Part shown: in pieces, positions 43,901 through 64,000 of the stretch
Numbering within the stretch: position 1 is the stretch's first letter
Layout of the letters: every line of letters starts with the position of its first letter
Assembly: GCA_963706325.1 (NCBI GenBank)
Contig: CAVPLT010000001.1
Coordinates: forward strand, 864,001 to 928,000
Direction of reading: 5' to 3'
Source of the DNA: an uncultured Nitrospiraceae bacterium
Lineage (GTDB): Bacteria > Nitrospirota > Nitrospiria > Nitrospirales > Nitrospiraceae
DNA: 64,000 bases
The notes under the pieces: generated by a model
What the model saw: only the letters and a program-made list of their open reading frames with translations
The model's database searches: none
Told to the model about the DNA's origin: nothing
Translations under genes and position numbers: made by a program

Positions 43901-43913
43901 GGAGGTCCTTTCA

Positions 43914-44834: not shown

Positions 44835-44923
44835 GGTCGCGTGATGGTGTGACCGCACGGGTGTCACGAGTGACGTCCTTGATGAATCCGCCTGTTTCAT
44901 GTGTAGGCGCTGAGTCATACCGG

Positions 44924-47900
44924 CTATCTCGGCCCTTTCGCCTCCTGCACGATGCCAAAGACGCGCATGGCCTGGCCCTTCTGGTCTCGATGGATTCGTC
45001 CGGTCCATGCCAACCAGTACATGGTCCCATTCGGCCTGACAACGCGATGTCGAATGTTGATGGAGGTCTGATCGGACAGACTGTGAGTGATACTTGCCAT
45101 GACCGTGGCTTGATCTTCGAGATACATGGCGTGGATCCATGCGGCGTAGTTCCCCAGGAAGGAACCGGCCGTCAGGCCGAACAGGGCCTCGACCTGTTCG
45201 GACCAATAGACCGCACCGGTGCGCACGTCCCAATCCCAAATGCCGACCTCGCACGCGGTAAGTGCCATCCGCAATCGCTCCTCGCTGACACGTAGTTGCG
45301 TCTCCGATCGTTTTCGCTCCGTGATGTCGGTAGAGATCCCACACATGGCCGAGACGTTTCCGGCCTGGTCGAAGATCGGGACTTTTATGGATAGGTAGGC
45401 ATGGGGGCCGTCGGCGTGCGGTGCGTACTCTTCGATTTCAAACGGTTTGCCGTGTGTGAGGACCCATTGGTCATTGGTTCGAAATGCATCGGCAAAGTCC
45501 TTCGAAAAAATATCGTGATCGGTCTTGCCGATAACCTGGTCGGAGCTGAGATGGAAGATCTGCTCGAATTGCTTGTTGACCATGAGGTATCGCCCGTCGC
45601 GTTGCTTCGCATAGATGGCCGTGGTGGAATTGTTGATGACGGACCGGAGCAGTTCCTCGCTGCGGTGAAGCGCGTTCTCAGCGCGTTTGCGCTCGGTGAT
45701 GCATTGCAGAGAGCCAGCCATGCGTAGGGCTTGGCCCTTTTCGTCGCGCTGCACCACTTCGGCACGAGCATGCACCCATCGATAGTCGCCCTGCTTGTCC
45801 AGCAGACGGTACTCGATGTCGTATGGAGGTCTGCCCGGTTCGAGGCAGGCGGAGAGACGCTGGACCACTCTTCTCCGATCGTCAGGATGCAGTCGAGATA
45901 TCCAGCTCTCTAGAATGTCGGGAAACTCCTGCTGGTTGTACCCCAACATGTCACGCACACGTGGTGACCACCAGACAGGTGTAGACGGTGAGTTCCATGG
46001 TCGTCCCGGCAGCACATGACTGTCCCAGAACCCGTCGGTCGACCCGCGGATGACCGATTCCAGTCGCTCCTCGCTGGCATGTAGGGATTCCTGGACTCGT
46101 TTGTAGTCGGTGATGTCGCGGGAGATGGCCAGCAGGCGGCGGACATGGCCCTTTGCATCGAGCATGGGCGTCACTTGCACGTCCCACCATTTCGCCTCTC
46201 CCGTGGTGGTCGGGCAAAATCCCACGAATTTCCCCATTTCACCGGCCCTTGCCGCTTCCAGGGCAGCGAGCGCGGCATTGCGATCATCGCCTTCCCAAAA
46301 ATCTCCCCAGGGCTTATTGATGTATGTGCTGATGTCCGTGATGCCGAGTAGTGTTTGCCCAGTGTCGTTCATGTACTGTAGCCGTCCATCCAAATCCAGC
46401 ACCTTCATGCAGTCGGCGCTGCTGCGCAGGATTTGATTGGTGAGCTCCTCGCTGTTGCGCAGCGCGAGTTCGGCTTCCTTCATGGCCGTAATGTCCTCGC
46501 ACACCATGAGGAGGACCGGGCCCTGGTGCTCATTCGGGACGCCCTGCGCGGTGATACGCGCCCAGATCACGCGGCCGTCCTTGTGGACTTTGCGCACCTC
46601 CCATCGCCCGGGTTGGCTCATGTCCGAGAGACAAGCCGCGAGATGTCGGCGTACGGCGTCGCCATCGTCCGGATGGAATACATCCATGACCTGCCTCCCG
46701 AGCAGTTCTTCTACTCGGTAGCCAAGCCGCTCAGCCCCGCAGCGGTTCACCGACAGCACCGCGCCTTCTGCGTCCACCATGAAGTACATGGAGGGATTGT
46801 CGTCGAACAGCACCCGGTATCGTTGTTCGCTCTCGATCAGCGCGGCCTCGACGCGCTTGCGATCGGTCACATCCTCGGCCAAGCCTACGATACGGTAGAC
46901 CGTTCCCGAGGCATCGCGAATCGGATACGCTCGGTCCCAGATCCATCGAATCGATCCGTCGGGACGTACAATCCGATACTCTTCGCGATACGTGCCCTGT
47001 CCCTGCCGGGCGACGGCGGTTGTGATGCGCTGCCGGTCCTCCGGATGAATCGCCTCCATCCAAGAATGAGGCGAGGCGTAGACGCTCTCGCAGGAGCGCC
47101 CCCAGGCGTCCTCGTATCCTGGGCTAATGTAGATCATTCGATCTTTGGTGTGATTGGTAATCCAGAACACTTCACTGATGTGTTCCGCCAGCTGACGAAA
47201 CCGCTCCTGGCTTTCCTCGACGGCTTGTTCTGCCTCCTTTCGTTCGGTGATATCGCGGAATACCACGACGGCTCCCGCAACGACACCCTTCTCGATAATC
47301 GGGGTGCAGACATACTCCACGGGCATGCTTGTGCCATCTTTCCGCCAAAAGACGTCGCTTGTAATACGATGGATCAAGCCGTCTCGCAGGGACGTATAGA
47401 TCGGGCACTCCTCGGCCGGATAGGGGCTTCCGTCAGGCCGAGAGTGATGGAGGAGTGCGTGCATCGGTCGTTCGACCAGTTCGGAAGGCTCGTAGCCGAG
47501 CGACCAAGCCGCCGTCGGATTGACGAAAGTCGTCAGGCCGGCGCCATCCAGGCCATAGATTCCCTCGCCTGCTTGCGTAAGAATCACTTCGTGCAAATGG
47601 CGGAGGCGGTCGAGAATTTCTTCAGCTAGGCGGCGTTGAGTGATGTCACGAATGATGCCGCTGTAGAAGACGGCGTCGGCCGTTTTCCATGTGGCCAGCG
47701 ACAGTTCCAGCGGAAATTCGCTCCCGTCCTTTCGTAATCCTTCCAGCTCAACCAAGCGACCGATTAGCCGGGATTGGCCTGCTTCACCGAGGCGGGTCAG
47801 GCCGCGGCCATGGGCCGCGCGGTAGCGCAGGGGCATCAACATGGTGAGGGGATGCCCGACCACTTCTTCATCGGCATATCCGAAAAGCTTCGACGCAGCT

Positions 47901-48412
47901 CGATTCCAGGAGAGAATGTTGCCGTGGTGATCGGCCAGCACAATGGAGTCGGTCGCCGCTTCGACCAGCGACTGAAATCGCGCTTCGCTCTCGCTCAGCG
48001 CATGTTCAGCATGCTCGGCTTTAGCGGCCAAAGCCTGAACGCCCACCGCCCGTTGCAGGATTGCACGCAATTCATCTCGATTGTAGGGTTTCGTAAGATA
48101 AGCGAACGCGCCTTGTGTCAGCGATCCGACTGTACGATCGGTGCTCGTGTAGGCGGTGAGGATGATCACCGGCAGCTGTGGTTGAAGTTCGTGCAAGGTC
48201 CTGAGCACCGAAGATCCGTCTCCATCCGGTAGTCCCAAATCCAGGAGCACGGCGTTATAGTGGTGCTCATGTGCCTGTGAAATTGCCTCGGCGCAGGTGC
48301 CTGCCACGCTGACCTCATAACCGTCGTGATCGAGAAAATCCTGCAGGGCAAGGACGATATCCGGATCGTCATCCACAACGAGAATGGAGTGAGCCAATGT
48401 TGTCGGTGACAT
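44924..48412 (-). CDS. REC + 8 PAS/PAC domain protein without catalytic output domain
   Basis: ILVVDDD REC domain, then eight PAS/PAC units, most starting SExR and ending D(I/V)T; stop right after the last PAS; GGAGG RBS before ATG 48412. Confidence 0.85.
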   Translation of the reverse strand: MSPTTLAHSILVVDDDPDIVLALQDFLDHDGYEVSVAGTCAEAISQAHEHHYNAVLLDLGLPDGDGSSVLRTLHELQPQLPVIILTAYTSTDRTVGSLTQGAFAYLTKPYNRDELRAILQRAVGVQALAAKAEHAEHALSESEARFQSLVEAATDSIVLADHHGNILSWNRAASKLFGYADEEVVGHPLTMLMPLRYRAAHGRGLTRLGEAGQSRLIGRLVELEGLRKDGSEFPLELSLATWKTADAVFYSGIIRDITQRRLAEEILDRLRHLHEVILTQAGEGIYGLDGAGLTTFVNPTAAWSLGYEPSELVERPMHALLHHSRPDGSPYPAEECPIYTSLRDGLIHRITSDVFWRKDGTSMPVEYVCTPIIEKGVVAGAVVVFRDITERKEAEQAVEESQERFRQLAEHISEVFWITNHTKDRMIYISPGYEDAWGRSCESVYASPHSWMEAIHPEDRQRITTAVARQGQGTYREEYRIVRPDGSIRWIWDRAYPIRDASGTVYRIVGLAEDVTDRKRVEAALIESEQRYRVLFDDNPSMYFMVDAEGAVLSVNRCGAERLGYRVEELLGRQVMDVFHPDDGDAVRRHLAACLSDMSQPGRWEVRKVHKDGRVIWARITAQGVPNEHQGPVLLMVCEDITAMKEAELALRNSEELTNQILRSSADCMKVLDLDGRLQYMNDTGQTLLGITDISTYINKPWGDFWEGDDRNAALAALEAARAGEMGKFVGFCPTTTGEAKWWDVQVTPMLDAKGHVRRLLAISRDITDYKRVQESLHASEERLESVIRGSTDGFWDSHVLPGRPWNSPSTPVWWSPRVRDMLGYNQQEFPDILESWISRLHPDDRRRVVQRLSACLEPGRPPYDIEYRLLDKQGDYRWVHARAEVVQRDEKGQALRMAGSLQCITERKRAENALHRSEELLRSVINNSTTAIYAKQRDGRYLMVNKQFEQIFHLSSDQVIGKTDHDIFSKDFADAFRTNDQWVLTHGKPFEIEEYAPHADGPHAYLSIKVPIFDQAGNVSAMCGISTDITERKRSETQLRVSEERLRMALTACEVGIWDWDVRTGAVYWSEQVEALFGLTAGSFLGNYAAWIHAMYLEDQATVMASITHSLSDQTSINIRHRVVRPNGTMYWLAWTGRIHRDQKGQAMRVFGIVQEAKGPR

Positions 48413-48444
48413 GCCATCCTCCCGAGTCCCGGAGGGCTCGTACG

Positions 48445-50472
48445 CTAAAATCTTAGGGTCAACCATCCCATCACCCTGCTGCCGATCGTCTCGCCGAGGG
48501 GGTATTCCTGATGTTTGTCGTTGAGTGCGTTATATGCGGACACGGCCACTTCCGCCTTCTCGTGCCAAAACCGATAACCTGCGCGTAGGTTCAAGAGGTT
48601 GTAGGCCCCGACGTTTGGGTTCGGCAGCGTCACAAGGGAGAGGGGGGCTGAGAAAATGTAGTGAATGATTGCCCCGGTGGATAGCTCGCCGATCCATAAT
48701 AATGAAAGATCGCTTCGGCGTTGAGCCCATTGTCCCATTCGCCCCGCATCCCGATGTTGAATTTGTTGTGAGGGGCGGCCCGTTGGATGCGACCGGTGAA
48801 CGTTTGGTGGATGTCCTGGTACGAGTAGTTCACGAAATCCGGTCAGCCACTTAGTGGCGAGAATTTCAACCCCGACTTCTCCGCCATAGATATCCGCAGA
48901 GTGGTTATCGTTGGTATAGGTTGCCACCGTCGGAGACTGATCGCGTACGCTGATGAGGTCTGAGATATGATTGTAAAAGGCGTCGGCACGAACCAGGATC
49001 CGGTGGCGCCAGTACCATCCTTGGTATCCCAACTCGTAGGAGATGATCTGCTCTGGTGAAAGGCTCTGGCCTCCCACTATTGATGTCGATAGTGGGGGCA
49101 CCGGCGGGTTCGTGTTCACCTGCGCATTCGCCTTCTTTTCGAGAAGCGTTGGAGGTCGATAGGCCACTGAACCGGACACCCGAAAGGTATGATTCGGAGC
49201 TGGTGTATACAGGAGCGCTACGCGAGGACTAACGGTCGAATTAATAAAGGTGTCCATGTCATAACGAAATCCAGCCTGCAAGCTAAGTGGCTGAGCGAGC
49301 TTCCACTCATCCTGGAGAAAGAATCCCAGTCTATTCTCTGTACTGTATTGCGAGATGTCACTGCTCGACAGAGTATTGAGACGGTAGTTCAGACCATAGG
49401 TCACCCGATTGCTAGGTAGCATTTCAAGAGAATGTTGGACGTCAATATTATAGGTATTAGCCAAGAACGATGAGGTCGGCGACCCGTCCCCAGCATTGTA
49501 ACTGAGAAACGGTGCAAGGGGAGGCTGGAACCTCACAATCGATGTGGCGTTGTATTGATTCCAGAACGCTCGCACAAAGAAGTCACGTCGTTCATAGGCA
49601 ACACTGGCGTATCCCTGTACCGGTTTCTGAGAAGTCGTGACATCCTGACTCACACCGAAATTGAACGCATTGGAATCAACGAGTCCGCCTGAGACCTTGA
49701 TCTTTGACTCTGCCGACAGAGCATATTCGGTCAAGACATTGAACAGATTATCCCGAAAGGCCAAGGAACTGCTGTTACTCCAGGAGGCGTTCTGATTGTG
49801 ACCGATGGAAAGACGATAGCCAAACTTGTCCACCGTTCCGGCCTGGATCGCGGAGGCCATGATGGTCCCATAGCTTCCGCCTCCGAATTGCAAAGTGGTC
49901 CCCTTCATATCTTCTGGAGACTTCGTGATGATGTTGATGACTCCATCAAACGCGTTAAATCCCCACACCGCTGCCGCCGGTCCCTTCAACACTTCAATCC
50001 GCTTAATCTCCGGCAGTGTTACCGGCAATGCTTTCCAGTTCACCGTTCCCTGTACGTCGTTATAAATTGATCGTCCATCCACCATGACCAACAGTTTGTT
50101 GGCTCCCGTTTGATTGTCTCCGCGCACACTCACGTTGAAATCTGCGCCATTCATTTGCATGACTTCCATCCCGGGGATGCGCCGGAGCAGGGTTGGTATG
50201 TCGATGGCACCCGAATGCCGGATGTCTTCGTCTGTAATCACATAAACATTCGATGGCGCCTGAGAGATCGGTTGCTCATAGCGACTGGCGATGCTGACCG
50301 TTTCCTCTTCCTTCAGTAGTTCGAGTTCTTGACTCGCCTCAACGGGCACCGGCTCGGGCCTCTCAGGTGCAGCAGATTCTGCCCATGCACTGCCGGTTAA
50401 GCCGACCATCAGTGCCGCCGCGAGCACTGGATGACCTGATCGCTGGAGCTCAGCCTGCATCACATCACTCAC
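48445..50472 (-). CDS. TonB-dependent receptor (contains two compensating indels)
   Basis: Signal peptide, plug domain (IKRIEVLKGP..GVINIITK), C-terminal Phe; ~48640-48836 reads correctly only in an alternative frame. Confidence 0.9.
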   Translation of the reverse strand: MSDVMQAELQRSGHPVLAAALMVGLTGSAWAESAAPERPEPVPVEASQELELLKEEETVSIASRYEQPISQAPSNVYVITDEDIRHSGAIDIPTLLRRIPGMEVMQMNGADFNVSVRGDNQTGANKLLVMVDGRSIYNDVQGTVNWKALPVTLPEIKRIEVLKGPAAAVWGFNAFDGVINIITKSPEDMKGTTLQFGGGSYGTIMASAIQAGTVDKFGYRLSIGHNQNASWSNSSSLAFRDNLFNVLTEYALSAESKIKVSGGLVDSNAFNFGVSQDVTTSQKPVQGYASVAYERRDFFVRAFWNQYNATSIVRFQPPLAPFLSYNAGDGSPTSSFLANTYNIDVQHSLEMLPSNRVTYGLNYRLNTLSSSDISQYSTENRLGFFLQDEWKLAQPLSLQAGFRYDMDTFINSTVSPRVALLYTPAPNHTFRVSGSVAYRPPTLLEKKANAQVNTNPPVPPLSTSIVGGQSLSPEQIISYELGYQGWYWRHRILVRADAFYNHISDLISVRDQSPTVATYTNDNHSADIYGGEVGVEILATKWLTGFRELLVPGHPPNVHRSHPTGRPSQQIQHRDAGRMGQWAQRRSDLSLLWIGELSTGAIIHYIFSAPLSLVTLPNPNVGAYNLLNLRAGYRFWHEKAEVAVSAYNALNDKHQEYPLGETIGSRVMGWLTLRF

Positions 50473-50920
50473 CCAGAACCGTAGCGTGAGCCATCCCAGT
50501 ACCCGCCTGCCGATGATGTCGCCCAGTGGAGGCTCCCAAGGGATCTGATTGGCAAATCGTTGATGCCGCCTCGCGCGCTGACGTTAAAATCGGCGCCGGA
50601 CACCTGCATGATATCCAGACCGGGCACGGGCCGGAGCACGGTGGGAATGTCGGTTGCGCCGGAATGCCGAATATCCTCATCCGTGATGACATAGACGTTG
50701 GAGGGTGACTGGGAAATAGGTTGCTCGTAGCGGGTCGCGATGCTCACGGTTTCTTCTTTGAGAAGTTCGAGCGCGTCGTTCGCACGCCCCTTCTCTGTCG
50801 GGACGGAAAGAGCAGGCGAGTCCTCAGCCTGGGTCGCAATGGCGCTACACAAGGTTAAGATCCCTCCCCAGATGAGGAGGCAGGCAGTGACGAACGGTTG
50901 GTGGTTGGGTGATCATCCAT
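50473..50920 (-). pseudogene. Internally deleted paralog of the TonB-dependent receptor
   Basis: Plug start LELLKEETVSIATRYEQPISQSPSN..VSARG joined out of frame to a C-terminal remnant PLGDIIGRRVLGWLTLRF; no in-frame start before the signal-like segment. Confidence 0.8.
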
Positions 50921-51198: not shown

Positions 51199-51492
51199 CT
51201 AGGCGCGTATCTGACTGGATACAGACTGTATATCTTCAGATACAGGTGCCTCGTGAATTTTGCTGGTGCGAGGCCTGCCTGGTTTTAGGTCTTGAAGCCG
51301 GGGCGAAAAGGGCTGGCCATTCTGCGACTCAAGATTATGGAGAAAATCTTGGAGCGCCGATGAGATGAGGCCTGCCATGGTGGTGCCGGAGGTCCAGTAG
51401 GCGGCATCGCGCATACGCTCAAGGAGATCGGTCGGCAGACTCACAGTCATTCGCTGGCGTCTCGGGCTTCTTAAGTAAACAAATCGGTTCAT
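51199..51492 (-). CDS. Small ribbon-helix-helix-like DNA-binding protein
   Basis: RQRMTVSLPTDLLERMRDAAYW..MAGLISSAL; AAAGGAG RBS. Confidence 0.7.
   Translation of the reverse strand: MNRFVYLRSPRRQRMTVSLPTDLLERMRDAAYWTSGTTMAGLISSALQDFLHNLESQNGQPFSPRLQDLKPGRPRTSKIHEAPVSEDIQSVSSQIRA
51206..51244. promoter_or_regulatory. Tandem UAS palindromes embedded in the 3' end of the RHH gene
   Basis: CGTATC-TGACTG-GATACA (51206) and TGTATA-TCTTCA-GATACA (51227), 21 bp apart. Confidence 0.6.
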
Positions 51493-52022: not shown

Positions 52023-52754
52023 CTAGCTGGGCAAGTACACCCCGGTTTGGTGTAACAGATGATCAAGCATTTGGCGCAAGGTATGCTTGTCATCATCATG
52101 CTCGATCAATTCAAGAAGGCAGGAAATAGCGTCATACCATAAGCCCGACTCAGAGTAGCGATAAATCGCCTCTCTACTGCAAGCGGTCCAAGTGCAGGGC
52201 ATGTCGAGGGCGCAAGCTTCGTCAAATGAAATCCGCTCGATCACTCCGCCTGCCACCACATCTCGGGACGGCCGGTTTGGGTCCACCACCAGCGTCACAA
52301 ACCACCGATAGGCCTCCTGCTCTTTGAACTCGACCCCATACTCACGAGGTCTGGTGCAATGAATACCGGCGCGAACAGGCGACGGAAGCGGTCGTTCAAG
52401 GACGGGACGAATTCCGCGTGAATCGACCACGGTGATGGTCATCGGTCGAGAGGTGTGCATGGATAGGTACCAACAGAGGGCTGGATCATTCTTGATCGTG
52501 AACGCAACATGATCTGGCACCAACGCCGTGAGGTGAGGCTCTTCCAGTTCACCGCCTCTGCTCTGTCCGCCAATACGTGCTCGGTGTTCGAAGTCCTGCC
52601 GCGGTTTATACAGGGGCATGGGAACTTCTGGAGAAGTGACGAGATCGGTTGCGTCACCGTGGGGAAGCGTGACCGGAAAAATGGCGATACCATGCCACGA
52701 GGCCAGCCAAATGGCCGTGACAACGAACATGAGCCTGAGCTTTTTAGATATCAT
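52023..52754 (-). CDS. DUF928 domain exported protein
   Basis: Signal peptide; RIGGQSRG, LVPDHV, YRWFVTL, GVIERI, YSESGLWYDAI. Confidence 0.85.
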   Translation of the reverse strand: MISKKLRLMFVVTAIWLASWHGIAIFPVTLPHGDATDLVTSPEVPMPLYKPRQDFEHRARIGGQSRGGELEEPHLTALVPDHVAFTIKNDPALCWYLSMHTSRPMTITVVDSRGIRPVLERPLPSPVRAGIHCTRPREYGVEFKEQEAYRWFVTLVVDPNRPSRDVVAGGVIERISFDEACALDMPCTWTACSREAIYRYSESGLWYDAISCLLELIEHDDDKHTLRQMLDHLLHQTGVYLPS

Positions 52755-52796
52755 CTTCTCGTTCCCGGACCTGTTGAAGCGACGGACTATCAAATC

Positions 52797-53531
52797 TCAC
52801 TCGTGCCGGAGCGCATGAGCCTGCGCCAGATCCCACTCAGCCACTTCATGGAGGCCAACTTGCTTAAGCAAGGCGGCGCGCTGCTTGCGCAGACCCGTAT
52901 CGGCGGGGTCGGCATCAATGAGCTCGCATAAACAGGCCATGGCATCGTACCAAAAACCCTTCGCGGCGCTCATCGCCACAGCCTCAGCCGTGCAGGTCGT
53001 GATGGCACCCAACATCACGCATTCGCTGAACTCGCACCGCTCAATCATTCCCCCCGTCACGATATCGCGTGAGGGCGAGTCCGCGTCTTTGATGACGGAG
53101 ATATACCAGCGGTATTGAACGTTGGTCTGCAGGGCGAAGCCCAGGTCATCGAGTTTGATGGCGTGCACGCCGGCCTGCTTCGGCGCCGCAATGGACTGCT
53201 CAACCAGCCCGCGAATCGATCGCTCGTCGATCAAGGTGAATCTTATCGGTAACGAGGTGTGACTGGAGAGAAACCAATTCAGTGCCGGGTGTTGTTTGGC
53301 GGTGAAGCCGACGTGGTCAGGCACGAGTGCCGCGACTGCGGGGTCTTCCCTGCTGCTACCTCTTAAGGTTCCGCCGATGCGTGCCCTGGGCGTGACCTGC
53401 TGAGGCGCATTGTACACCGGTAATTCGGGCCGTACTTCAGATACTCCGCCACTAGGGTTTACCAGCAGAGCGGCGAGCAGCACCGCCCCGCCTATCCCCC
53501 GGGCTAAGCAGCAATATCTCCAGGTTGACAT
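52797..53531 (-). CDS. DUF928 domain exported protein
   Basis: Signal peptide; RIGGTLRG, LVPDHVG, YRWYISV, GFWYDAM, ALLKQVGL. Confidence 0.88.
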   Translation of the reverse strand: MSTWRYCCLARGIGGAVLLAALLVNPSGGVSEVRPELPVYNAPQQVTPRARIGGTLRGSSREDPAVAALVPDHVGFTAKQHPALNWFLSSHTSLPIRFTLIDERSIRGLVEQSIAAPKQAGVHAIKLDDLGFALQTNVQYRWYISVIKDADSPSRDIVTGGMIERCEFSECVMLGAITTCTAEAVAMSAAKGFWYDAMACLCELIDADPADTGLRKQRAALLKQVGLHEVAEWDLAQAHALRHE

Positions 53532-53635
53532 GGTGTCACCCTCTTCTCATGGGCGTCAGTAGGCTGCGGAACAACTCTGTTGCGATGCCGGCAATTCAAC
53601 CGCTGGCCCGTCTAGCACAATAGAAGAAATATCTC

Positions 53636-53805
53636 CGACGAAGCTCAAAAGGCCGCTAGCAGGGCCGCAATCAACGAACAGGCGACGCATCACATTCTTA
53701 TCAGCCAGGCGAAGAGCCTCCCAACCAGGTTCTTTTCCCCGGGCGGCACGTGAAGCCTCTGAAAAAAAACGAGAACGCCGCGCTGAATTTTCAGCCTCCT
53801 GTTAG
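53636..53805 (-). mobile_element. MITE/REP-like element, degenerate copy
   Basis: Minus strand begins CTAACAGGAGGCTGAAAATT on the CHAT gene stop; GTTCTCG..CAGAGGCTTCACGT and TGCGGCC..CGGCCTTTTGAGC match the 37137 copy. Confidence 0.65.
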
Positions 53806-56144
53806 AGCCAATTGTTCAATAATAGAAATGCCGACCAATAAGCTGGATGTTCATAGAGCCCCTCCGACAGTAGCTTCAGCTGTGCAAGCTGCAAAGCACG
53901 TGCCTTTGATATCGAGGTGTCATGCAGTTGACGATAAAATTCTGACACCAGTTCCGACGACGCTTCATCGTTGATGAACCAAAGCGTGGCAAGGGCACTC
54001 CGAGCTCCCGCCTTCACCGCAACGCCGGCTAGCCCAAGTGCGGCACGGTCGTCCCCGATGCCGGTCTGACAGGCGCTCAAGGTGAGGAGTTCCAAAGGAT
54101 CTTGGCGAAAGCGAAACATGCCCACCAGCTGCTCTAACTGCGTCATGGTCAGTTTATCGTCGAATGTCAGCAAAAATGATTGGTTGACGTCCGTGGCGAA
54201 CTGGCCATGGGTGGCGATATGAAGGATAGTGTAACGGCCATCTTTCAACTCTGCTTCTATCCGTGGCGCGACGAAATTTGTGTCGAGCAGTTCCTCGCCC
54301 TTAAACAGCGAGTGAATATATCCGACTTCCTCAGCGACATGTGGCAGAGGAGGGAAACCCTGCACGGCTTTCGTCAGCCCACTGGACAGGAGTTGGACTC
54401 TGGCTCGATTGATGGGTTGAGGATCAGTCAAATCGAGGCCGGGAGTCATCGCGACGGCGTATTGCGCGATGAGGAATTGGTGGCCGTCATGTAGCGCCGA
54501 CATGGGGATGGTGCGGAGCGGGCCATCCGGTACAAAGACCAATGTGGTGACGTGGAGTCGGCGAAGGTCATTTTCAAGGGGCCGTACCAACCAGTCATAT
54601 AACCGGTTGGCATGGGGCAAGTACTCGCGAGTGGTCCGCTTTTCGAGCATGCGCCGGAAGCTGCGTATCTCCTCAGTCAGCGCTGACGCCGTCACCGGAA
54701 TGGAATGCCGTTTGAGGCCGTCAGGGAAGCTCACCAGCAGTTCGGTGCGATCGCCGAAGATGATCGGGTAAATGATGGCCGTGGAAGGAGAGACGGCATC
54801 CAGCTTGGTAATGCGAGCCTGCATCTGGTCGACGCAGTCATCCCGGAAATAATCCCGAAGCTCGGCCGCCTTGTAAGCCTCAATCGAATCGCGCGCCGCC
54901 TTCAAATAGGGTTCGGCCTGCAGGTCGTCACCCATCAAGGCCGCACGCTGCAACAGCAGATCGGCCGATTCAAAGTACAGTGAGCGGATGGACTGTTGAC
55001 CTGGCTCCAGAGAGGTTTGGGAAGCGAAGGTGACTTCAGCTCGAATCGGTTGCAAGGTGACCGCCGCTTCCTGATAGGCCGACAAGGCATCATCGAGCTT
55101 GCCCAGGCGCGTGAGTAGACGGCCGCTTTGCCACTGCCAACGGTACAGCGATTCGGGTGCGCGAGCTGACTGCGCGGAAAAAATGGCTCGCCGAGTGAGC
55201 TGCAGGGCTTCATCCAAGCGGCGTTCTTGCTCGTAGAGATGTCCGAGGTGTCCATACGCATAAGAGGCCAGGCGTGCACCGCCGGGCGTATCCGCCATCG
55301 CGGCTGCCTCTTGCAGCAGGGTCGCAGCCTGTCTCAGCGAGCGGTCATGAGAGTCCGGCTGAACCGATGCCAGGTCACGATATCCTAAGGCCAGGTTGAC
55401 GAGCCCATCGGCCTTGTCGTGCGAGGCCGGCGCCGGGGAAAGAATTCCGCCGGCGTCATTCAAGGCCGCCGCCGCCTCCTCAAATCGTTTCAATTGAATG
55501 GCCACACGCGCAGCGTTGACACGGGCGCGAACGGCAAGGGCGGGCAGGTTTTCGTCCCGCGCACGCGTGGCGCTGTCTTGAAACGCGGTCAGCGCTTCAG
55601 GGAGCTGGCCCTGTAACGCCCGGACAATACCGAGATCATTTTGCAGCGCCGCCGACAGCGCCCCGAAATTCTGTGACTGCGCAATGACGGCCGCCTGTGA
55701 CAGATAGTCTGAGGCGGTGTCGTATTGATGGCTTGCCACATAGGTTTTGCCAAGCTCCGAAAGTGTCACCGTCAGCCATTTGGGGTCGTCAATCTTGCGC
55801 GCGAGATTCATGGCCAATTCCTGATGCAGGAAGGCCTGGTTGAGGTGGCCCAAGGTGCGGGCGGCGTAGGCGGCATAGGAAAGCGCCTGGATATGATTCT
55901 TGGCCTGGCCGGCCTGGTCGTACAGTTGCGCAGCCTCTTTCCAGGCCACGAGTGCTTCCTCCATCGACCCTTGTTGCGCGGCCGAGTGTCCCCGTTGCAT
56001 GAGCTCGTCGGCCGTAGGCGTGGTTTCCGCCCTGAGCGTACTCACACAGGCGAGCAGGAATATGATGCATAGGACGAATGCCTTGGGGATTTTGGCGCGA
56101 GCCCTCGCGGCCATTGGAACTCGGCTCTCCAGCGGTGTTCTCAT
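53802..56144 (-). CDS. Exported TPR + CHAT (caspase-like) protease
   Basis: Signal peptide, TPR helices, FVPDGPL, catalytic dyad motifs HIATHG and LSACQTG, ATLW, HPAYWSAF. Confidence 0.93.
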   Translation of the reverse strand: MRTPLESRVPMAARARAKIPKAFVLCIIFLLACVSTLRAETTPTADELMQRGHSAAQQGSMEEALVAWKEAAQLYDQAGQAKNHIQALSYAAYAARTLGHLNQAFLHQELAMNLARKIDDPKWLTVTLSELGKTYVASHQYDTASDYLSQAAVIAQSQNFGALSAALQNDLGIVRALQGQLPEALTAFQDSATRARDENLPALAVRARVNAARVAIQLKRFEEAAAALNDAGGILSPAPASHDKADGLVNLALGYRDLASVQPDSHDRSLRQAATLLQEAAAMADTPGGARLASYAYGHLGHLYEQERRLDEALQLTRRAIFSAQSARAPESLYRWQWQSGRLLTRLGKLDDALSAYQEAAVTLQPIRAEVTFASQTSLEPGQQSIRSLYFESADLLLQRAALMGDDLQAEPYLKAARDSIEAYKAAELRDYFRDDCVDQMQARITKLDAVSPSTAIIYPIIFGDRTELLVSFPDGLKRHSIPVTASALTEEIRSFRRMLEKRTTREYLPHANRLYDWLVRPLENDLRRLHVTTLVFVPDGPLRTIPMSALHDGHQFLIAQYAVAMTPGLDLTDPQPINRARVQLLSSGLTKAVQGFPPLPHVAEEVGYIHSLFKGEELLDTNFVAPRIEAELKDGRYTILHIATHGQFATDVNQSFLLTFDDKLTMTQLEQLVGMFRFRQDPLELLTLSACQTGIGDDRAALGLAGVAVKAGARSALATLWFINDEASSELVSEFYRQLHDTSISKARALQLAQLKLLSEGLYEHPAYWSAFLLLNNWL

Positions 56145-57907
56145 TTAGAAAACCTGCGCGACAAGTTGAAGATGGATACCATAATCCTGCAGATTGCCTT
56201 CACCGCTCCGTACGTGATTAAGTTGCTGGCCCCAGTATATTTCAAATCGCGCGCGTTCTTGGGGCAGGATCATCCATCGTACTCCCACACCGACGCTGGC
56301 CAAGGTTTGCAAATCGGGCGTGGGGCCTTTCGCGCTCCAAGCATGTCCGAAATCGACGAATTGTGCAAACTGCAGTCGGTCTTCACCGGATGCAAAGCGC
56401 AATAATGGAAATCGTGATTCAACTGAAGCCAATACGGCATCATCACGCACGAGGGTATTTTCCCGATAGCCGCGCACGGTGAAGCGTCCGCCGACGGGCA
56501 TTTGTTCTAGGGGAAAGAGCCGGTCGCTCGCCATTTGCGCAGCCACACGACCTAATAGCTGAACGCCCCACCAATCATCTAGTCGCTTCACCACTTGCGC
56601 CTGACCCAGCCAGGAGACAAATTGACCGTCGGGTAGAGGTCCATTGTTGATCGTGGCCCCCAGGACGTTCAGGCCGACGCTTACGCGCGAGAGAGCCGCG
56701 AAGACAAAAGATGGAGATCGATGCGTATATTCCTGGCTGAATCGGAGCGCGCTGACGGTAGCCACGCCGGTCGTGGAAGAGCCTGGAATGAACAGCGATG
56801 GGAGCCCGGGGGCGTCGAACGCCGACGTCGTCTTCAGATACAAATGCTCGCCGGTGAGGGCCAGGGCAAACTCGTCGCTGACAGTACGGTACACAGGCTG
56901 GCGCAATGTAAGGCCGATGACTTCGGAATCCACGTTTAGATCCAAGGAGCGAAAAGGATTCTCGACCACCAGGAAGTCATTGCGCCGATAGTTGGCGGTA
57001 AGGGTCGTCTCGTAGGAATTGAGCGGCAGACTATAGGACGTATCGATGATGGGGTTGACGCCGCGTGACCGTCCGTAGGTGAACGAAAATGGATCGCCAT
57101 GACCCGTCACGTTCTGGTGCGCCACCGTCGCTAGGCCCCGCTCAGCTCCGACGACCGGGGTTTGATAGTTATTGAAATCCAGCCAGGCCCTTTAAAGGGG
57201 TTGGCGTCCTTCACGCGCACATTCAGGACGCTTTCACCCCGGATGTCGCCCGGTTTGAGCTCGGCATTGATGCGTTCGATACGAGGATCCTGTTGCAGCA
57301 ATTGAATCCGTTCTTGGAGCGGCTGGATGCTAAGGGGAGTGGACACACCGCGCGCGACACGATCGCGCAGATACGAACTGCGAAACCATTGGTTGCCCTC
57401 CACATCGATGCGCGCGAGTTTGCCTTCAACCATCTGAATGACCACGAGCCCCATCCTGACATCTTGATCGGGAATGATGGCGCCGGAGGTAAGATATCCT
57501 CTATTGACGTACAAGAGGGTGAGCGCGAGACGAAGCCGTTCCAGGTCATCGCTGGTCACTTCACGGTTACGATAGGGAGCGGTGACTTCAGCGAGTTCCG
57601 CGTCCGAAAAGACGGTGCTCCCGGTCACGTGGATGTCATGCACAAATATCCGGATATTTCCCAAACGATTGTCGGCCGGTTTTTGAGGGGTGGTCGGCAC
57701 TTCCGGAAGTATCGAGCTCGGTGGTTCTGTCAGCGGAGCTTTGAACTCCTCCTTGAAGGGGGCAGGCGGTTTTCCCGATTTGCCGGTCGGGTCAAAAATC
57801 GGCGGGAGCGTGGGCGCCACCTGAGCAAGGGCTGGACCTTCGAGGAGCCAGAGGCTCATTAAAAGGCCAACGCACAGAGCCCGGCTATAGAAGATGCTCA
57901 AAGGCAT
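56145..57907 (-). pseudogene. ShlB/FhaC/HecB (TpsB) two-partner secretion transporter, split by one frameshift near 57190 (real or sequencing error)
   Basis: POTRA region (YVNRGYLTS..VEG) in one frame continues as AWLDFNNYQTP..VRGYREN..QVF barrel in another; break at CCCCTTTAAAGGG. Confidence 0.8.
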
Positions 57908-57942
57908 TCATTAACCTGTTCGTCGGTGTGCCGGCTCACCTG

Positions 57943-60900
57943 TCATGATCGACAGCCTGCCGTCCAATCGTGTATGCCTCGTTGGAATAGAGGATTCAGC
58001 TGTTCGATCCACGGTTCCGCTAGCGCTTGTCCCTGTCTCAAGGGATAGAGGGAGTCGCCGCCGACTGGAGAGGGTTGCAGAGAAGGCGTATCGTCTGCCA
58101 TCCATGTCATGGGGCTCATCTGCCATCCACCCGGTTCTGCGGGCAATGAATCCCGGCCCGCGATCACGAGGCTGCTCATGTGGCCATTCACCTGGGCAGC
58201 ACAGCGTTGTCGCATGAGTTGCTGCGCTTGCAGCGGTTGTTGCGGCAATGTGGTCAAGGTGTTACTGAGGCTCGACAGGGGCGATTGAATGTTCACGGCG
58301 CCGCTCAATCCGAATTGCGACGAGGCGCTCACGACGCTGCTTTGATCGGCGAGAAACGTGCCCGCAATGATGTTGATGTTTCCGCCTGACCCCTGCACCG
58401 CTTGCGCGAGCACCTGGCTGTTTTGCAGCGTGACGACGGCTGGGTCGAGGGTAATGTTTCCGCCGGAGGTGTTGGGGCCGCCCTGGACGGAGGTGCTGAG
58501 CTGGCTGTTGACGAGTCGGATTGAGTCGGTGGCCTGGATGAAAATATTGCCGCCGCTCGCCTGGTTCGCTTCCGTCGTGATGGACGAGTTTTGGCTTAGG
58601 AATTGCGGGCCGGCGTTGATGGCAATGTTACCGGCGTTGCCCAAATCGGTACTACTGGCGGAAATGGCCGCTCCGTCGCTCATGGTGACCTGGTCTTGCG
58701 CCTTGATGAAGATGCTCCCACCGCTCTGAGTACCTCGAGACAGGGCCGACACTCGACCTCCCTGCATCAGAAAAGTTCCGGTGGTCAGATCGATATTGCC
58801 CCCTTGCTCCTGCAGGTTGATGGACTGCGGTCTCACATCCGTCACGTTGGCCGAAATAGTGGAGTCGTGCAGTTCGACGGGGCCTCTGACGTTCAGAACG
58901 ATCTTTCCGCCGAGCGCATCGATATTGGTGTCCGTGAGCAGATCAGTTCCGGTGAGATTCACGGAAGTCCCGGGTGTTAAGGGTGCATCTCCCCGCGCCG
59001 GTGGCCTTCGCCCACTGATAGTGATCATCCCCGCACCGCCGCTGCCCGTACTGCTGCTGGAGATGACCACGCGAGCAGGATTATCGGGGTTTAATATTAT
59101 CGGCGAACCCAGAGTCCCTCCTGGCCCAGTTCCAGGCCGGGTGGTCAACTCATCGACTTGCAACTGAATGGTGCTGCCGATACGACTACCCCGGGTGGGT
59201 GCAATGATCCCGCCGCCGGTGATATCCAAGCTTTTCGCGGCGAGGAGAGTGCTGCCCTGGACGCTTCTGCCATCCGAGTTCACGGGGCCCCTTTCGCCCG
59301 CGCCGACGACGTCGATCAGATCACCTGCGCGGGTCCGGACATTGGACACATCGTTGGCTCGCGAGTTCAGGATCGTATGGTCAAGGGTGATGTTGCCGGA
59401 CCTGATTCTGAGATAGCCGGGAAGCCCGGAATGGAGAGCTTCGACCGTGACCTCTGAATTGACGAGATGGACTGTGCCTGTCGGTTTATCAGGGTAAAGG
59501 GTGTCCCAAATGGCGCCTTCGGTGAAATAGTGATCCCCGATGATTTTCGTGAGGCCTGCCTGAGCCCTCCCTCGACTGGTGTTGGTAATAAACGAATTGT
59601 TGGCGGTCACCGAGTTATCAGCCCGCAACCAAATCTCCCCTGCGGTTGGTCCTCCCTGGCACGTAGGGCACGTGCCGATATCCGACACCAGCGCGTCAGC
59701 CTTGACCGTGCTGTCATTCAGGACGATATCCGATGACATAATATCGATGTTACTCAGCCCCTGATATCGCGCGGGTTGACCGTTGGGTTTCGTCCCGTCC
59801 AGGTCGAAGTCTTGCGTCGCGACTGAAACGGTCGTGTCCGTCAACGATACCCGCTCTTGCCCTCGGAGAATTACTTTTCCGCCGGGGGCATTGCTTGTGG
59901 CTTGAGAATGAAGATCCGTACCTTGAAGGTCTATCCGACGGGAAAAATACATGGTCAGCGGATCGGTGCGCCCCAGCTCGGGCGTGAGAATAAAGGAGTA
60001 GTTTCGCGTCACGCTATGCGCGGCATCATGAAGACCTTGGATGGTAATATCGCCCGCTTGCCCGCCGAAACATTGGCTGCCACAGTTGCTGTCACTAGAA
60101 AAAAGAACACGTCCATCAGGTCCCGCGTGCGTCCTCAATGTATTCACATTCAAGGTGATCGCCCCGGCATCCGCCCCGCCGGTGGTGTCGGCCCTCAAGG
60201 AGGTCCCGTTCGCCAGCTCAACCTGTTGCGCCGTGATGACAATGTTGCCGGGGGCCACAGCTGGATCGGCGGTATTGGTGACGCCCGTCTCGATATGGGT
60301 GTTGCTCAGCCTGACCGCGTCAGCCGGTTCCCCTGCTTTTCCCCGAATGGCAATGGACCCAGCTCCGCCCTGGCCCGTGCTGGTACTGGCAATGGTCACT
60401 GGTAAAGCGCCGTTGAGAGCAATGCCGGCCGATCCGACATTGCTGCGGAAGGTGCCCGCCTCAAAGCTGATATCACCGGCCGTTCCGCCGGTGGTGGATG
60501 CGACGACGTTCGATCCATGCGAGAGGGTCACCTCCTCCGCTAGGACAGAAATACCCCCTGTTGCCGGAGCAGAGGGTGCTGCGTTCGGTGAGGTGGCCGT
60601 TGTGCTCGCCTCAAGACGAGCATTGTCCATGGTGAATTGTCCACCGCGGATTGCAATGCGCCCCGCAGTCGGTCCGCTCGTGTTCATCACACTTCCTTGA
60701 ACGAGCGAAATACTTCCCAGCGATGTGAAGCCGCTCAGCATAGACTCCCCGAGAGCCGCTGATGCTGTCGCCGACACTTCGCCGGCCGACGCGACCGCAA
60801 CCAGGGTGACCTGTCCACCCGGAGCGGCAAGCTGTGCCGGTTGGTCCGTGGTATGTTCGAGGACTCCACCGTGAGCGGTCAGATTGCCTCCCACCAAGGA

Positions 60901-61548
60901 CATGCCCTGCCCTTCCGAGACCGCCAGTTGGCCGCCCTGCAGGGTGATGGCCCCGGGGTTTGAGCCCAAGAATCCGAAGGCCGCTACCGGCGCACTCGTG
61001 ATCGAGGCGTCGAGCGATCCTGGAATCGCATTGAACCTGGCTCCATCTGCGAGGCGAAGATAATCAGCCGTTGTAAAACTGACCGATCCTCCGACATTTA
61101 ACGAAGCATTGGGTCCGAACACGATCCCGGCCGGGTTCATCAAAAACAAATTGGCGCTCGCAAAGCCAGTGGTTTGAATGGTCCCGAAGATGTTCGATGG
61201 ATTTCCGCCGGTGACACGGCCCAGAACATTCGACGTGCCGAGCCCCGAGTCGTTGAGAAAATTGGCCACGTTACTCGTGGGTACGCCGAATTCGCCGAAG
61301 CTGTGAAACAGGTTCGGACCGCTGCCAGGACGAGTGCCGCCGGTGATGTCATACACGTTGCCGCTTTTCGTGACGGTCGTATTCAGCCCCGACGAAGTGA
61401 TGGGCGCGGGCGCCTGGGCGCCCGCGCTATCCGGTAGACAAGGCGGGATCAGCCAACAGGCGAGCAGCACAGCAGAAAGATGTGGGCAACACTTATGGCT
61501 AGAACCAGTCAGAAGGCTGGTGAGCATAGGGCCTTTCTCATCAGTCAC
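57943..61548 (-). CDS. Filamentous haemagglutinin-family TpsA exoprotein
   Basis: Signal peptide; TPS domain NLFHSFGEF..NLFLMNPAGIVFG; GGxIxI beta-helix repeats; C-terminal RC..SSLVIAGRDSLP motif. Confidence 0.92.
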   Translation of the reverse strand: MTDEKGPMLTSLLTGSSHKCCPHLSAVLLACWLIPPCLPDSAGAQAPAPITSSGLNTTVTKSGNVYDITGGTRPGSGPNLFHSFGEFGVPTSNVANFLNDSGLGTSNVLGRVTGGNPSNIFGTIQTTGFASANLFLMNPAGIVFGPNASLNVGGSVSFTTADYLRLADGARFNAIPGSLDASITSAPVAAFGFLGSNPGAITLQGGQLAVSEGQGMSLVGGNLTAHGGVLEHTTDQPAQLAAPGGQVTLVAVASAGEVSATASAALGESMLSGFTSLGSISLVQGSVMNTSGPTAGRIAIRGGQFTMDNARLEASTTATSPNAAPSAPATGGISVLAEEVTLSHGSNVVASTTGGTAGDISFEAGTFRSNVGSAGIALNGALPVTIASTSTGQGGAGSIAIRGKAGEPADAVRLSNTHIETGVTNTADPAVAPGNIVITAQQVELANGTSLRADTTGGADAGAITLNVNTLRTHAGPDGRVLFSSDSNCGSQCFGGQAGDITIQGLHDAAHSVTRNYSFILTPELGRTDPLTMYFSRRIDLQGTDLHSQATSNAPGGKVILRGQERVSLTDTTVSVATQDFDLDGTKPNGQPARYQGLSNIDIMSSDIVLNDSTVKADALVSDIGTCPTCQGGPTAGEIWLRADNSVTANNSFITNTSRGRAQAGLTKIIGDHYFTEGAIWDTLYPDKPTGTVHLVNSEVTVEALHSGLPGYLRIRSGNITLDHTILNSRANDVSNVRTRAGDLIDVVGAGERGPVNSDGRSVQGSTLLAAKSLDITGGGIIAPTRGSRIGSTIQLQVDELTTRPGTGPGGTLGSPIILNPDNPARVVISSSSTGSGGAGMITISGRRPPARGDAPLTPGTSVNLTGTDLLTDTNIDALGGKIVLNVRGPVELHDSTISANVTDVRPQSINLQEQGGNIDLTTGTFLMQGGRVSALSRGTQSGGSIFIKAQDQVTMSDGAAISASSTDLGNAGNIAINAGPQFLSQNSSITTEANQASGGNIFIQATDSIRLVNSQLSTSVQGGPNTSGGNITLDPAVVTLQNSQVLAQAVQGSGGNINIIAGTFLADQSSVVSASSQFGLSGAVNIQSPLSSLSNTLTTLPQQPLQAQQLMRQRCAAQVNGHMSSLVIAGRDSLPAEPGGWQMSPMTWMADDTPSLQPSPVGGDSLYPLRQGQALAEPWIEQLNPLFQRGIHDWTAGCRS

Positions 61549-61565
61549 ACGTCTGCGTGCCGCTG

Positions 61566-64000
61566 TTAGGATCGACAGCCGGTTGTCCGGTCGAATACCA
61601 CTCGTTGTGATGACGAACCACGTTGATCAGACCACTGTCTTGAATGCCCCTGGATTTGCGGTGAGAGTTCGATGTCGGCTAAGTGAGCTTGTGGAGTCGG
61701 GACGTCGCCAGCCATCAACGCCATGGGGCTCATGAGCCATCCCCCTGGCTCCATTGGAAGGGAATCGCGCCCTGACACCACGAGGCTGCTCAGGTGACCA
61801 TTCGCCTGTGCGGCACAATGTTGCGTGAGTAGCGGCTGTGCTTGCAGCGGCCGTTGCGGCAGCGTCGCCAACGTGTTGCTCAAGCTCGACAAGGGGGATT
61901 GAATGTTCACGGCACCGCTCAATCCGAATTGAGATGAGGCACTGACGACGCTCGTCGGATCGGCAAGAAACGTCCCCGCGATGATGCTGATGTTGCCGCC
62001 TGCTCCCTGCACGGCTTGCGCGAGCACTTGGCTGTTCTGCAAGGTGACGACGGCCGGGTCGAGGGTAATGTTGCCGCCCGATGTGTTGGGGCCGCCTTGG
62101 ACGGATGTGCTGAGCTTGCTGTTAACGAGGCGGATCGAATCGGTGGCCTGGATGAAAATATTGCCGCCGCTCGCTTGAGCCGCTTCGGTGGTGATGGAGG
62201 AGTTCTGGCCCAGGAACTGCGGCCCGGCGTTGATGGTAATATTGCCCGCGTCGCCAAGGCCGATGCTGCTGGCCGAAACGGAGGCCCCATTATTCAAGGA
62301 GAGTGACTGACCCGCATTGATGGCAATGTCGCCACCGACACGCGTTCCTCTAGAAAGGGCGGAAATCTCTCCGCCCTGCATCGAGATACTTCCGCCCGAT
62401 ATAGCGATATTTCCGGTTTCCGCCTGGATGTTTGCAACGTTCGGTCGAACATCAGTTACGTTGGCTGATACGGTCGAATCGCGCAGTTCTATGGGGCCGG
62501 TCGCCCGCATTTCAATTTTTCCTCCGATTCCAACGCTGTTGGTTTCGGTCAGCACATCGGTTCTATTAAGAATGATGGAGGCCGAGGGCGGATGGGGAAC
62601 ACCGTCAGCTATCGGGACACTTACCCCAGTGATACTGACCAGGCCTGCCCCACCGCTGCCGGTGCTGTTGCTGGAAATCACGACCCTGGTCGGATCAGTG
62701 CCGTCGAGGACCATGGGAGAGGCAAGCGTTCCCGCTGGTCTGGTGCCGGGATGAGTGATCAACTGATCGGCATGCAATTCAATCCGATTGGCGATCCGAC
62801 TGCCCTGCGTAGGCGCGATAATTCCGCCACCGGTGATGTCAAGCACCTTTGCAGACATGTAGAGACTGCCTTGCACGCTTCGTCCATCGGTCACGGTTGT
62901 GCCCGCCTCGCCAGCACCAGCCACATCGATCAGTTGTCCTTGTGAATCTAGGACGTTCGTCACATTGTTTACTTTTGAATTGACGATAGAATGGTCAAGG
63001 CTGATGTTGTCAGCCCTGATTCTGAGATAGCCAGGCAATCCCTCGTGTTGAGACTCCACCGTGACTTCAGAATTCGTGAGCCTCACGGACTCCGCAGGAG
63101 CATCGGGGTATAGTGTGTCCCAGACGGCGCCGAATGAAAAATAATGGTCCTTGATGATCTTCGTGATACCGGCCTGGGCTCGTCCACGACTTCTATTCGC
63201 GATTAAAGAGTTATCCGCCGTTAGTGAGCGTTCCACGCGCAACCAGATTTCGCCGGCGCTCGGTCCTCCCTGACAGTATGGACAGGATCCAATATCAGAG
63301 ACATCGGCGTCGGCCTTAATCGTGCTGTCTTTCAAAACGATATCGTGCGCCATGATATCGATGCGGCTAAAGCCCTGATTATTTGCTGGCTCGCCATTGG
63401 GTTTCAGGCCGTTGATTTCAAAATCTTGTGTCGCGACTGAGACGGCGCTGTCGCTGAACGAAGCCGGTCCGTTCGTTCGCATGATGACCTTGCCGCCCGG
63501 CGCGTTAGCATAAGCGTCCGAATGGATATCGGTGCCTTTAAAGTCAAACTCTTTTGCGAAGTAGTAAGTGATGGGCCTGTTCGGCTCGGCATCTGGCGTC
63601 GTGACGTGGCGATAAATTCGTGTGGTGGGTGGCGTCACGCCTGGCATGCCTTGAATGGTGATGTCAGCCGCTTGTCCCCCCAGGCATTGGCTCCCGCAGT
63701 TGCTGTCGGCCGAAATCAGTACACGGCCATCAGGCCCCGCTTGCGTCTTAAGCGTGTCCAGGTTCAACGTGATCGCCCCGGCATCCGCGCCACCGGTGGT
63801 GTCCGACCGGAGGAGGGTGCCGTTCGTCAACTCCACCTGTTGTGCTGTGATGGCAATGTTTCCAGGTGCAACTCTCGGATTGGCGGCATTGGTGACTCCT
63901 GTCACGATATGGGTGTTGCTCAGGAAGACCTCGTGAGCCGGTCCTCCTGCCGCTCCTGTAATGGAAATCGATCCGGCTCCGCCGTGACCCGTACTTGCGC
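61566..64000 (-). CDS. Second TpsA/FHA-like paralog (5' end beyond the window)
   Basis: Frame open to the window edge; collinear with the 57943-61548 protein, including its C-terminus. Confidence 0.9.
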   Translation of the reverse strand, partial: ASTGHGGAGSISITGAAGGPAHEVFLSNTHIVTGVTNAANPRVAPGNIAITAQQVELTNGTLLRSDTTGGADAGAITLNLDTLKTQAGPDGRVLISADSNCGSQCLGGQAADITIQGMPGVTPPTTRIYRHVTTPDAEPNRPITYYFAKEFDFKGTDIHSDAYANAPGGKVIMRTNGPASFSDSAVSVATQDFEINGLKPNGEPANNQGFSRIDIMAHDIVLKDSTIKADADVSDIGSCPYCQGGPSAGEIWLRVERSLTADNSLIANRSRGRAQAGITKIIKDHYFSFGAVWDTLYPDAPAESVRLTNSEVTVESQHEGLPGYLRIRADNISLDHSIVNSKVNNVTNVLDSQGQLIDVAGAGEAGTTVTDGRSVQGSLYMSAKVLDITGGGIIAPTQGSRIANRIELHADQLITHPGTRPAGTLASPMVLDGTDPTRVVISSNSTGSGGAGLVSITGVSVPIADGVPHPPSASIILNRTDVLTETNSVGIGGKIEMRATGPIELRDSTVSANVTDVRPNVANIQAETGNIAISGGSISMQGGEISALSRGTRVGGDIAINAGQSLSLNNGASVSASSIGLGDAGNITINAGPQFLGQNSSITTEAAQASGGNIFIQATDSIRLVNSKLSTSVQGGPNTSGGNITLDPAVVTLQNSQVLAQAVQGAGGNISIIAGTFLADPTSVVSASSQFGLSGAVNIQSPLSSLSNTLATLPQRPLQAQPLLTQHCAAQANGHLSSLVVSGRDSLPMEPGGWLMSPMALMAGDVPTPQAHLADIELSPQIQGHSRQWSDQRGSSSQRVVFDRTTGCRS

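Follow-up and report, generated by a model that had tools for sequence, protein, structure and literature searches.

In Pseudomonas aeruginosa, the two-partner secretion (TPS) adhesin of the CdrA/CdrB system is held by a C-terminal cysteine-bearing module on which a periplasmic cysteine protease, LapG, acts (PMC13405001). In Myxococcus xanthus, DdvA of the DdvA/DdvS pair is a periplasmic protein of tetratricopeptide repeats (TPRs) and a CHAT domain, with a His-Cys dyad, proposed to be a signal-triggered protease (PMC11506125), and craspase Csx29, separase and HetF join a TPR scaffold to pseudo- and active caspase-fold domains under allosteric control (PMC9457339). Sensing at the outer membrane is relayed to the CHASE2 adenylate cyclases CyaD1/D2/K by the NsrA system of Sinorhizobium meliloti (PMC13001267, PMC7529298). 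The locus described here lies in a stretch of 64,000 nucleotides from an uncultured Nitrospiraceae bacterium (contig CAVPLT010000001.1, positions 864,001 to 928,000; "the window"), where the open reading frame (ORF) list and a Pfam scan place two TpsA genes, a TpsB gene, a TPR-CHAT gene and two DUF928 genes in one direction, all on the minus strand, at 52023-64000. Homologues with a name belong to Nitrospira, and we take the host to be Nitrospira-like. It unites known parts in a new arrangement and is a real, widely conserved module, undescribed in a full-text literature search (without subscription papers and preprint supplements) that met DUF928 merely in passing beside CHASE2.

Each of these resemblances comes with a difference. 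Unlike CdrA/LapG, the locus has a caspase-clan TPR-CHAT protein within the tps operon, an unrelated tail motif, an additional DUF928 and a dispensable second cysteine; among the 14 locus proteins scanned, with the rest of the genome not searched, no Pfam match to a LapG-family protease or a LapD receptor was found. DdvA acts as a membrane anti-sigma factor and is proposed to undergo self-cleavage, whereas the protease here has a leader, no cytoplasmic domain and a tie to TPS and DUF928; with TPRs starting at residue 45 and no sigma factor among the locus proteins scanned, the anti-sigma architecture of DdvA was not encountered. The catalytic domains of Csx29, separase and HetF are cytoplasmic, their activators are RNA-bound Cas7-11 or the removal of securin, and they involve no secretion system; no ORF for Cas7-11 or Csx30 appears among the neighbouring genes. 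The available text on NsrA (PMC13001267) mentions no TpsA, CHAT or DUF928, and the present locus in turn has no CHASE2 gene.

We posit that the locus encodes a trans-envelope proteolytic switch, in which a tail-bound periplasmic caspase would turn a change at a surface filament into a cut in DUF928 and hence into a receptor signal; we judge the chances of this reading to be evenly balanced. TpsA filaments would be threaded through TpsB while their conserved C-terminal tail stays in the periplasm, a type Vb export with retention of a cysteine-bearing C-terminus that we propose by analogy with CdrA, and the likely periplasmic TPR-CHAT protein would hold that tail. A change at the filament would switch CHAT on from an allosteric resting state, and its cleavage would then follow an arginine, as HetF and separase lead us to expect; the flexible arm of DUF928 is the likeliest target. 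Cut DUF928 would go on to act on a receptor in the inner membrane, which in most lineages is a CHASE2 protein. The TpsA paralogues, several in number, constant at their ends and variable in between, would feed interchangeably into a single pore and a single protease. Both binding and cleavage by CHAT are what we infer; a pairing of the first tail cysteine (Cys1) with CHAT Cys437, DUF928 as the substrate and the interchangeability of the paralogues are suggested by patterns of conservation. A more specific, Notch-like outside-in form of the switch, in which variable TpsA antennae are disulfide-tethered through Cys1 and Cys437 to the caspase beneath the TpsB pore, the active site is freed when the antenna is bound or pulled, and clipping of the DUF928 arginine arm makes the ligand for CHASE2 receptors, their place being taken in Nitrospira by a swapped-in pair of binding protein and kinase, strikes us as rather unlikely. 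If the switch exists, an exported caspase-clan protease would gain a substrate and an activator, DUF928 a function and CHASE2 receptors a candidate input; carriers of the cassette include nitrifiers, cyanobacteria and soil phyla. CHAT Cys437 and Cys692, tail Cys1116 and DUF928 Arg57 make a three-protein test in vitro direct, and homologues on plasmids of Nostoc punctiforme and Nostoc PCC 7120 open the system to genetics.

The best-supported step, common to the proposed switch and to its rivals, is action of the protease on or together with the TpsA tail. Across 301 Nitrospirota genomes, the sample for all CHAT-clade, tail, TPS and DUF928 counts, the CHAT clade occurs in 55 and the tail in 54, all of them inside the 55, with the exception explained by a match at a contig edge. 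The TPS domain occurs in 87 genomes, 53 of them with the CHAT clade, and the tail in 0/34 of those without it; presence of tail and CHAT is also matched within genera (20/29 in g10 and 7/9 in g13, for both). The tail and CHAT profiles were both built from such loci, and related genomes are not independent samples. On an Acaryochloris plasmid, a single gene encodes TpsA, tail, TPRs and CHAT one after another, the tail motif standing immediately ahead of the TPRs. Past its leader this fusion has exactly three cysteines, corresponding to the tail cysteine, Cys437 and the catalytic cysteine. The first-pass annotation had suggested that the TPR region senses the TpsA C-terminus; co-inheritance and fusion give CHAT and that C-terminus a specific genetic link.

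The full-length TpsA proteins of the array all share one C-terminal module: a cysteine, the motif S-S-(F/L)-V-x2-G-R-D-x-L-P-x2-P-G, then a spacer that varies and, in most cases, a terminal cysteine. Identity among the four paralogues is 86-91% in the TPS region, 20-62% in the middle, 67-88% in the tail motif and 22-34% in the distal spacer. Cys1 is present in 168/168 tails covering that column. A later cysteine, as in the two-cysteine hook of CdrA, follows in 133 of 167 complete tails, among them TpsA-1 with Cys1116 and Cys1199, and is absent from 34; all 34 of these keep Cys1, and 29 of them also have no cysteine in the 200 residues upstream. Retention of Cys1 without a terminal partner suggests an intermolecular disulfide between tail and CHAT, for which Cys1-Cys437 would be the simplest reading; alternatively, a Cys437-Cys692 latch within CHAT may be opened by the tail cysteine.

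The same tails bear on a different account, regulated shedding of the CdrA/LapG kind, in which CHAT would cut the TpsA tail and free the filament from its cysteine hook while inside-out control of the protease would come from DUF928, as a securin-like pseudo-substrate, and from the receptor. The two-cysteine majority is what such a hook, released in CdrA by periplasmic LapG (PMC13405001), would look like, a tail arginine is found in 143/168, and a minimal TpsB-TpsA-CHAT unit exists without DUF928. Against this stand the 34 tails without a second cysteine and the 25/168 without the arginine, and the position of the motif between both cysteines, where a cut would presumably leave the ring of Cys1 and terminal Cys in place. 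In the Acaryochloris fusion, moreover, the folded protease itself would be the anchor, and the linked receptors, cyclases and kinases, have their input domains on the outer side, in keeping with an outside-in flow. Shedding seems to us unlikely, though a serious contender. At 143/168, the tail arginine is also weakened as a universal cut site.

The protease itself matches PF12770 (E 5.8e-56), with the TPRs right behind the leader. Its model (predicted local distance difference test score, pLDDT, 82) has two caspase-fold lobes behind a TPR superhelix, with Csx29/craspase, DdvA and separase as best folds; the TPRs resemble those of LGN/Pins. The dyad residues His646 and Cys692 and the non-catalytic Cys437 are each present in 125/125 aligned homologues, and the acidic residues Asp698 (124/125), Asp726 (123/125) and Asp540 (117/125), close in sequence to the dyad, may form an arginine pocket. 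HetF cuts after Arg117 (PMC9457339) and separases after arginine (PMC11506125). Ahead of the first TPR, 115/125 homologues have a hydrophobic stretch, compared with 10/125 in an internal control window, and six of the misses are cyanobacterial rows whose longer N-termini do show such a stretch; CHAT is likely periplasmic. Cys437 and Cys692 are the sole cysteines of the mature protein here, and 87/125 mature homologues have only two. The signal peptide and intact dyad motifs ascribed to CHAT at first reading are thereby upheld, the former by a hydropathy heuristic; a lipoprotein reading of the leader was dropped, Cys33 being present in only 11/125.

Should the CHAT domain be non-catalytic, it might merely bridge TpsA, DUF928 and the receptor. 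In keeping with such a scaffold, mutating the periplasmic dyad of DdvA gave no resting-state phenotype, and its activity was not demonstrated (PMC11506125), and Thr replaces the Gly after the catalytic His in 8/125 CHATs, including the second copy in this genome, on C4. The invariance of His and Cys, at 35-57% overall identity between genera, argues the other way, and we consider a scaffold very unlikely.

In the DUF928 model (pLDDT 85), the residues up to 65 form a coil, behind which come an Ig-like sandwich and TPR-like helices. Its best-conserved residues sit in the coil (Arg57 108/110, Arg51 105/110, Tyr40 103/110), and cyanobacterial DUF928 proteins retain a Gly-x-x-Arg pattern. A conserved arginine in a flexible arm would suit a substrate or pseudo-substrate of an arginine cutter such as HetF, and Arg57 is our candidate cut site. 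The fold matches the C-terminal domain of MtxA (PDB 4Z29) with Z 10.8 and a root-mean-square deviation of 4.5 over 159 residues, the next match having Z 6.5; Foldseek gives E 2.6e-5, identity is 12-13%, an Atlas match to MtxA families (0.81) is a lead only, and a search against PDB sequences gave no match at E up to 10. MtxA and DUF928 share the Ig-like plus TPR-like two-domain fold, while the conserved arginine arm belongs to DUF928; a shared fold in itself shows no function. Signal peptides had been noted for both DUF928 proteins, and each does begin with a hydrophobic stretch by the same heuristic. In two loci, DUF928 stands behind an unannotated N-terminal domain and the profile start is absent (L086:9485-10621 and L087:9765-11135); one of these fusions directly precedes a TonB receptor, and the other is near a WD40-caspase (C14) gene.

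In wider samples, the set is kept although its gene order and strand vary. Metagenome loci of at least 8 kb (n=44, from the best 80 of 337) have a TPS component beside CHAT in 41, DUF928 in 32 and CHASE2 in 21; for GTDB loci of at least 12 kb (n=54, from the best 80 of 520) the figures are 47, 43 and 32. Eight of 112 plasmid records with a CHAT match were examined, and these hold a TPS gene or fusion in 7, DUF928 in 7, CHASE2 in 5 and ShlB in 3. A further 60 genome regions were chosen around CHAT or DUF928 matches and are not a random sample. By record titles, the cassette occurs in about nine phylum-level groups: Nitrospirota, Pseudomonadota, Verrucomicrobiota, Acidobacteriota, Desulfobacterota-type families, Zixiibacteriota, Abditibacteriaceae, Entotheonella and cyanobacteria, whose TpsA proteins carry a recognisable version of the tail. 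The sorting of titles into phyla is our own. The co-occurrence in Nitrospirota and cyanobacteria that was to be checked holds there and in other phyla, and by the neighbourhood and phyletic counts it exceeds chance. Some loci form a third variant without DUF928 (L051-L058 and L060, from G005, G029, G032 and G033), with DUF4384, an OmpA/Pal-like protein, a cyclase, PP2C or Ser/Thr kinase; some of them also have FecR and a second, unrelated TPR-CHAT.

These counts speak to a further account, in which TPR-CHAT is a biogenesis factor that chaperones or trims the TpsA tail during export as quality control and signalling is incidental. CHAT is indeed strictly co-inherited with the tail and not with DUF928 or a receptor, and a single CHAT probably serves several TpsA genes, including unlinked ones (the C4 orphan TpsA; G058). 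A biogenesis role leaves unexplained, however, why DUF928 and CHASE2 accompany the long GTDB loci across phyla at the frequencies given above, and we regard it as distinctly improbable.

On cyanobacterial plasmids the cassette also adjoins EACC2-caspase systems, which comprise caspase-CHASE2 proteins with sigma and DUF1822 (PMC8195603). One row of the supplement to that work places Haemagg_act genes before a SIG+TPRs+CASPASE gene, and its main text, as far as available, describes a cytoplasmic caspase and mentions no DUF928, ShlB, haemagglutinin or two-partner secretion. No EACC2-caspase protein occurs at our locus; identified by architecture, with no EACC2 profile, such proteins stand beside the cassette only on those plasmids.

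The usual neighbours of the cassette elsewhere are CHASE2-cyclase or CHASE2-kinase genes. Here a substrate-binding protein and kinase adjoin it, and this pair is a candidate for the receptor in this genome, an assignment that we rate as less likely than not. The annotation had the cassette possibly feeding the adjacent receptor/kinase block, a link that is weak. In its favour, the substrate-binding protein of the block lies within 13 kb of CHAT in 37/55 CHAT genomes (among the matches listed), and loci with CHASE2 and with a TonB receptor/substrate-binding protein number 35 versus 13 of 80, 9 versus 23 of 55 and 39 versus 16 of 80, with both together in none. Against it, the block persists where the cassette has been lost (L089) and its pairing with the cassette is nearly confined to one order. 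Exclusivity as functional replacement is weakened as well, since 15/16 GTDB loci of the TonB type are Nitrospirota by title and the pairing may be one ancestral juxtaposition. Separately, one locus has CHASE2 fused to a C-terminal CHAT right after an exported TPR-CHAT, with protease on both membrane sides (L108:2190-4550).

Several observations weigh against the proposed switch. This locus has no CHASE2, the one CHASE2 gene of the genome lying elsewhere, and binding-protein matches in 132/301 genomes show the binding-protein/kinase block to be spread more widely than the cassette. DUF928 is above cut-off in 54/301 genomes, 50 of them with CHAT, and 5/55 CHAT genomes have no DUF928 match; together with a C4 locus without DUF928, those five imply that it is not the sole target. 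DUF928 with the arginine arm also occurs in two genomes without the CHAT clade (G146 and G131), so the arm may bind something else. Since craspases cut after Met or Leu, arginine specificity of CHAT is not assured. The tail profile was made from rows with the invariant cysteine, which biases the 168/168 count, and related genomes are not independent. Finally, TpsB is broken in this assembly.

The TpsB break lies near 57186 and splits the gene into ORFs at 57131-57907 and 56145-57125, with POTRA and ShlB domains present nonetheless. Among 50 other TpsB loci, 46 have a single ORF of 571-656 aa, 2 are split and 2 are cut by the locus edge. Two bases are absent at 57186 in contigs of sequencing runs X1, X2 and X4, all of one study, and the X4 contig with the deletion also differs at 12/672 other letters; run X3 covers 57186 and the deletion is not listed there. 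Indels relative to the runs also hit a TonB receptor and the farthest TpsA gene is fragmented, which makes an error-prone assembly plausible; the break is either an assembly error or a strain-level lesion. The order of two TpsA genes and a TpsB gene given at first reading was correct as to domains, with the qualification that TpsB is frame-broken and the array extends past the window. Four TPS domains, of six genome-wide, and four tails lie at C1 922-935 kb, and two further TpsA genes, one in pieces, stand upstream of TpsA-2. The TpsA match to PF05860 has E 2e-41, with TIGR01901 also matched, and a domain scan of TpsA-1 found no toxin domain.

The genes are co-oriented and tightly packed, as first described, with CHAT beginning directly after the TpsB stop and gaps of 17 and 35 bp among the tps genes; the packing does not reach DUF928, which 270 bp separate from CHAT. 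A hydrophobic N-terminal stretch is present in 5/5 proteins tested by the hydropathy heuristic (CHAT, both DUF928, TpsB and TpsA). Promoter and terminator scans found fewer sites than in shuffled sequence, and one RNA sequencing run gave short scattered contigs that are not evidence of expression. Feature positions are collected in Table 1.

Table 1. Features of the cassette and its surroundings, in window coordinates unless prefixed C1.
Feature	Position	Strand	Description
TpsA-2, C-terminal part	61566-64000	-	truncated by window end; whole ORF 1255 aa, up to C1:929333
TpsA-2 conserved tail	61566-61889	-	Cys1, SSLV-x2-GRD-x-LP-x2-PGG motif, terminal Cys
TpsA-1, 1201 aa	57943-61548	-	signal-like N-terminus, TPS domain PF05860 (52-298), variable middle, conserved tail
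TpsA-1 conserved tail	57943-58275	-	Cys1116 (58201-58203), putative docking motif, terminal Cys1199 (57952-57954)
TpsB	56145-57907	-	POTRA_2 and ShlB barrel; two ORFs, frame break near 57186
TPR-CHAT, 780 aa	53802-56144	-	hydrophobic leader, TPR superhelix, PF12770; Cys437 (54834-54836), His646 (54207-54209), Cys692 (54069-54071)
DUF928-a, 244 aa	52797-53531	-	hydrophobic leader, flexible arm (Tyr40, Arg51, Arg57), Ig-like sandwich, TPR-like helices
DUF928-b, at most 256 aa	52023-52793	-	39% identity to DUF928-a; arm motif retained
Conserved 97-aa ORF	51199-51492	-	between DUF928 and TonB receptors; present in 12 loci; without family match
Adjacent block	41600-50852	-	TonB-receptor remnant, TonB receptor, receiver-PAS protein, ABC-type substrate-binding protein, HAMP-GAF histidine kinase

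The conserved 97-aa ORF has a ribbon-helix-helix look by eye and is possibly a DNA-binding regulator. At 48445-50852, the first of the two TonB receptors is a remnant, as it is in L068, and the second has its indels relative to the runs near the end. In several relatives, the genes ahead of the TpsA array encode a FadL-type outer-membrane protein and a GAF kinase (here C1 937468-939078, past the window).

Elsewhere in the genome, C4:475499-481217 is a second, minimal locus of TpsB, a 432-aa TpsA that is scarcely more than TPS domain and tail, and TPR-CHAT, syntenic across the genus and without DUF928 or receptor; it is the simplest system for testing. An orphan TpsA with a full tail lies distant from any TpsB or CHAT at C4:592743-596006 and is probably served in trans. 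Anti-phage defence was set aside as a role, PADLOC giving just a weak TPR match among 5 proteins scanned. In L217, TpsB and CHAT form one ORF whose junction contains an X and a leader-like stretch; it was treated as an artefact. C2:142199-145651 encodes an unrelated CHAT protein of 1150 aa; by eye its N-terminal half looks like a hydrolase, and no TPS genes are nearby.

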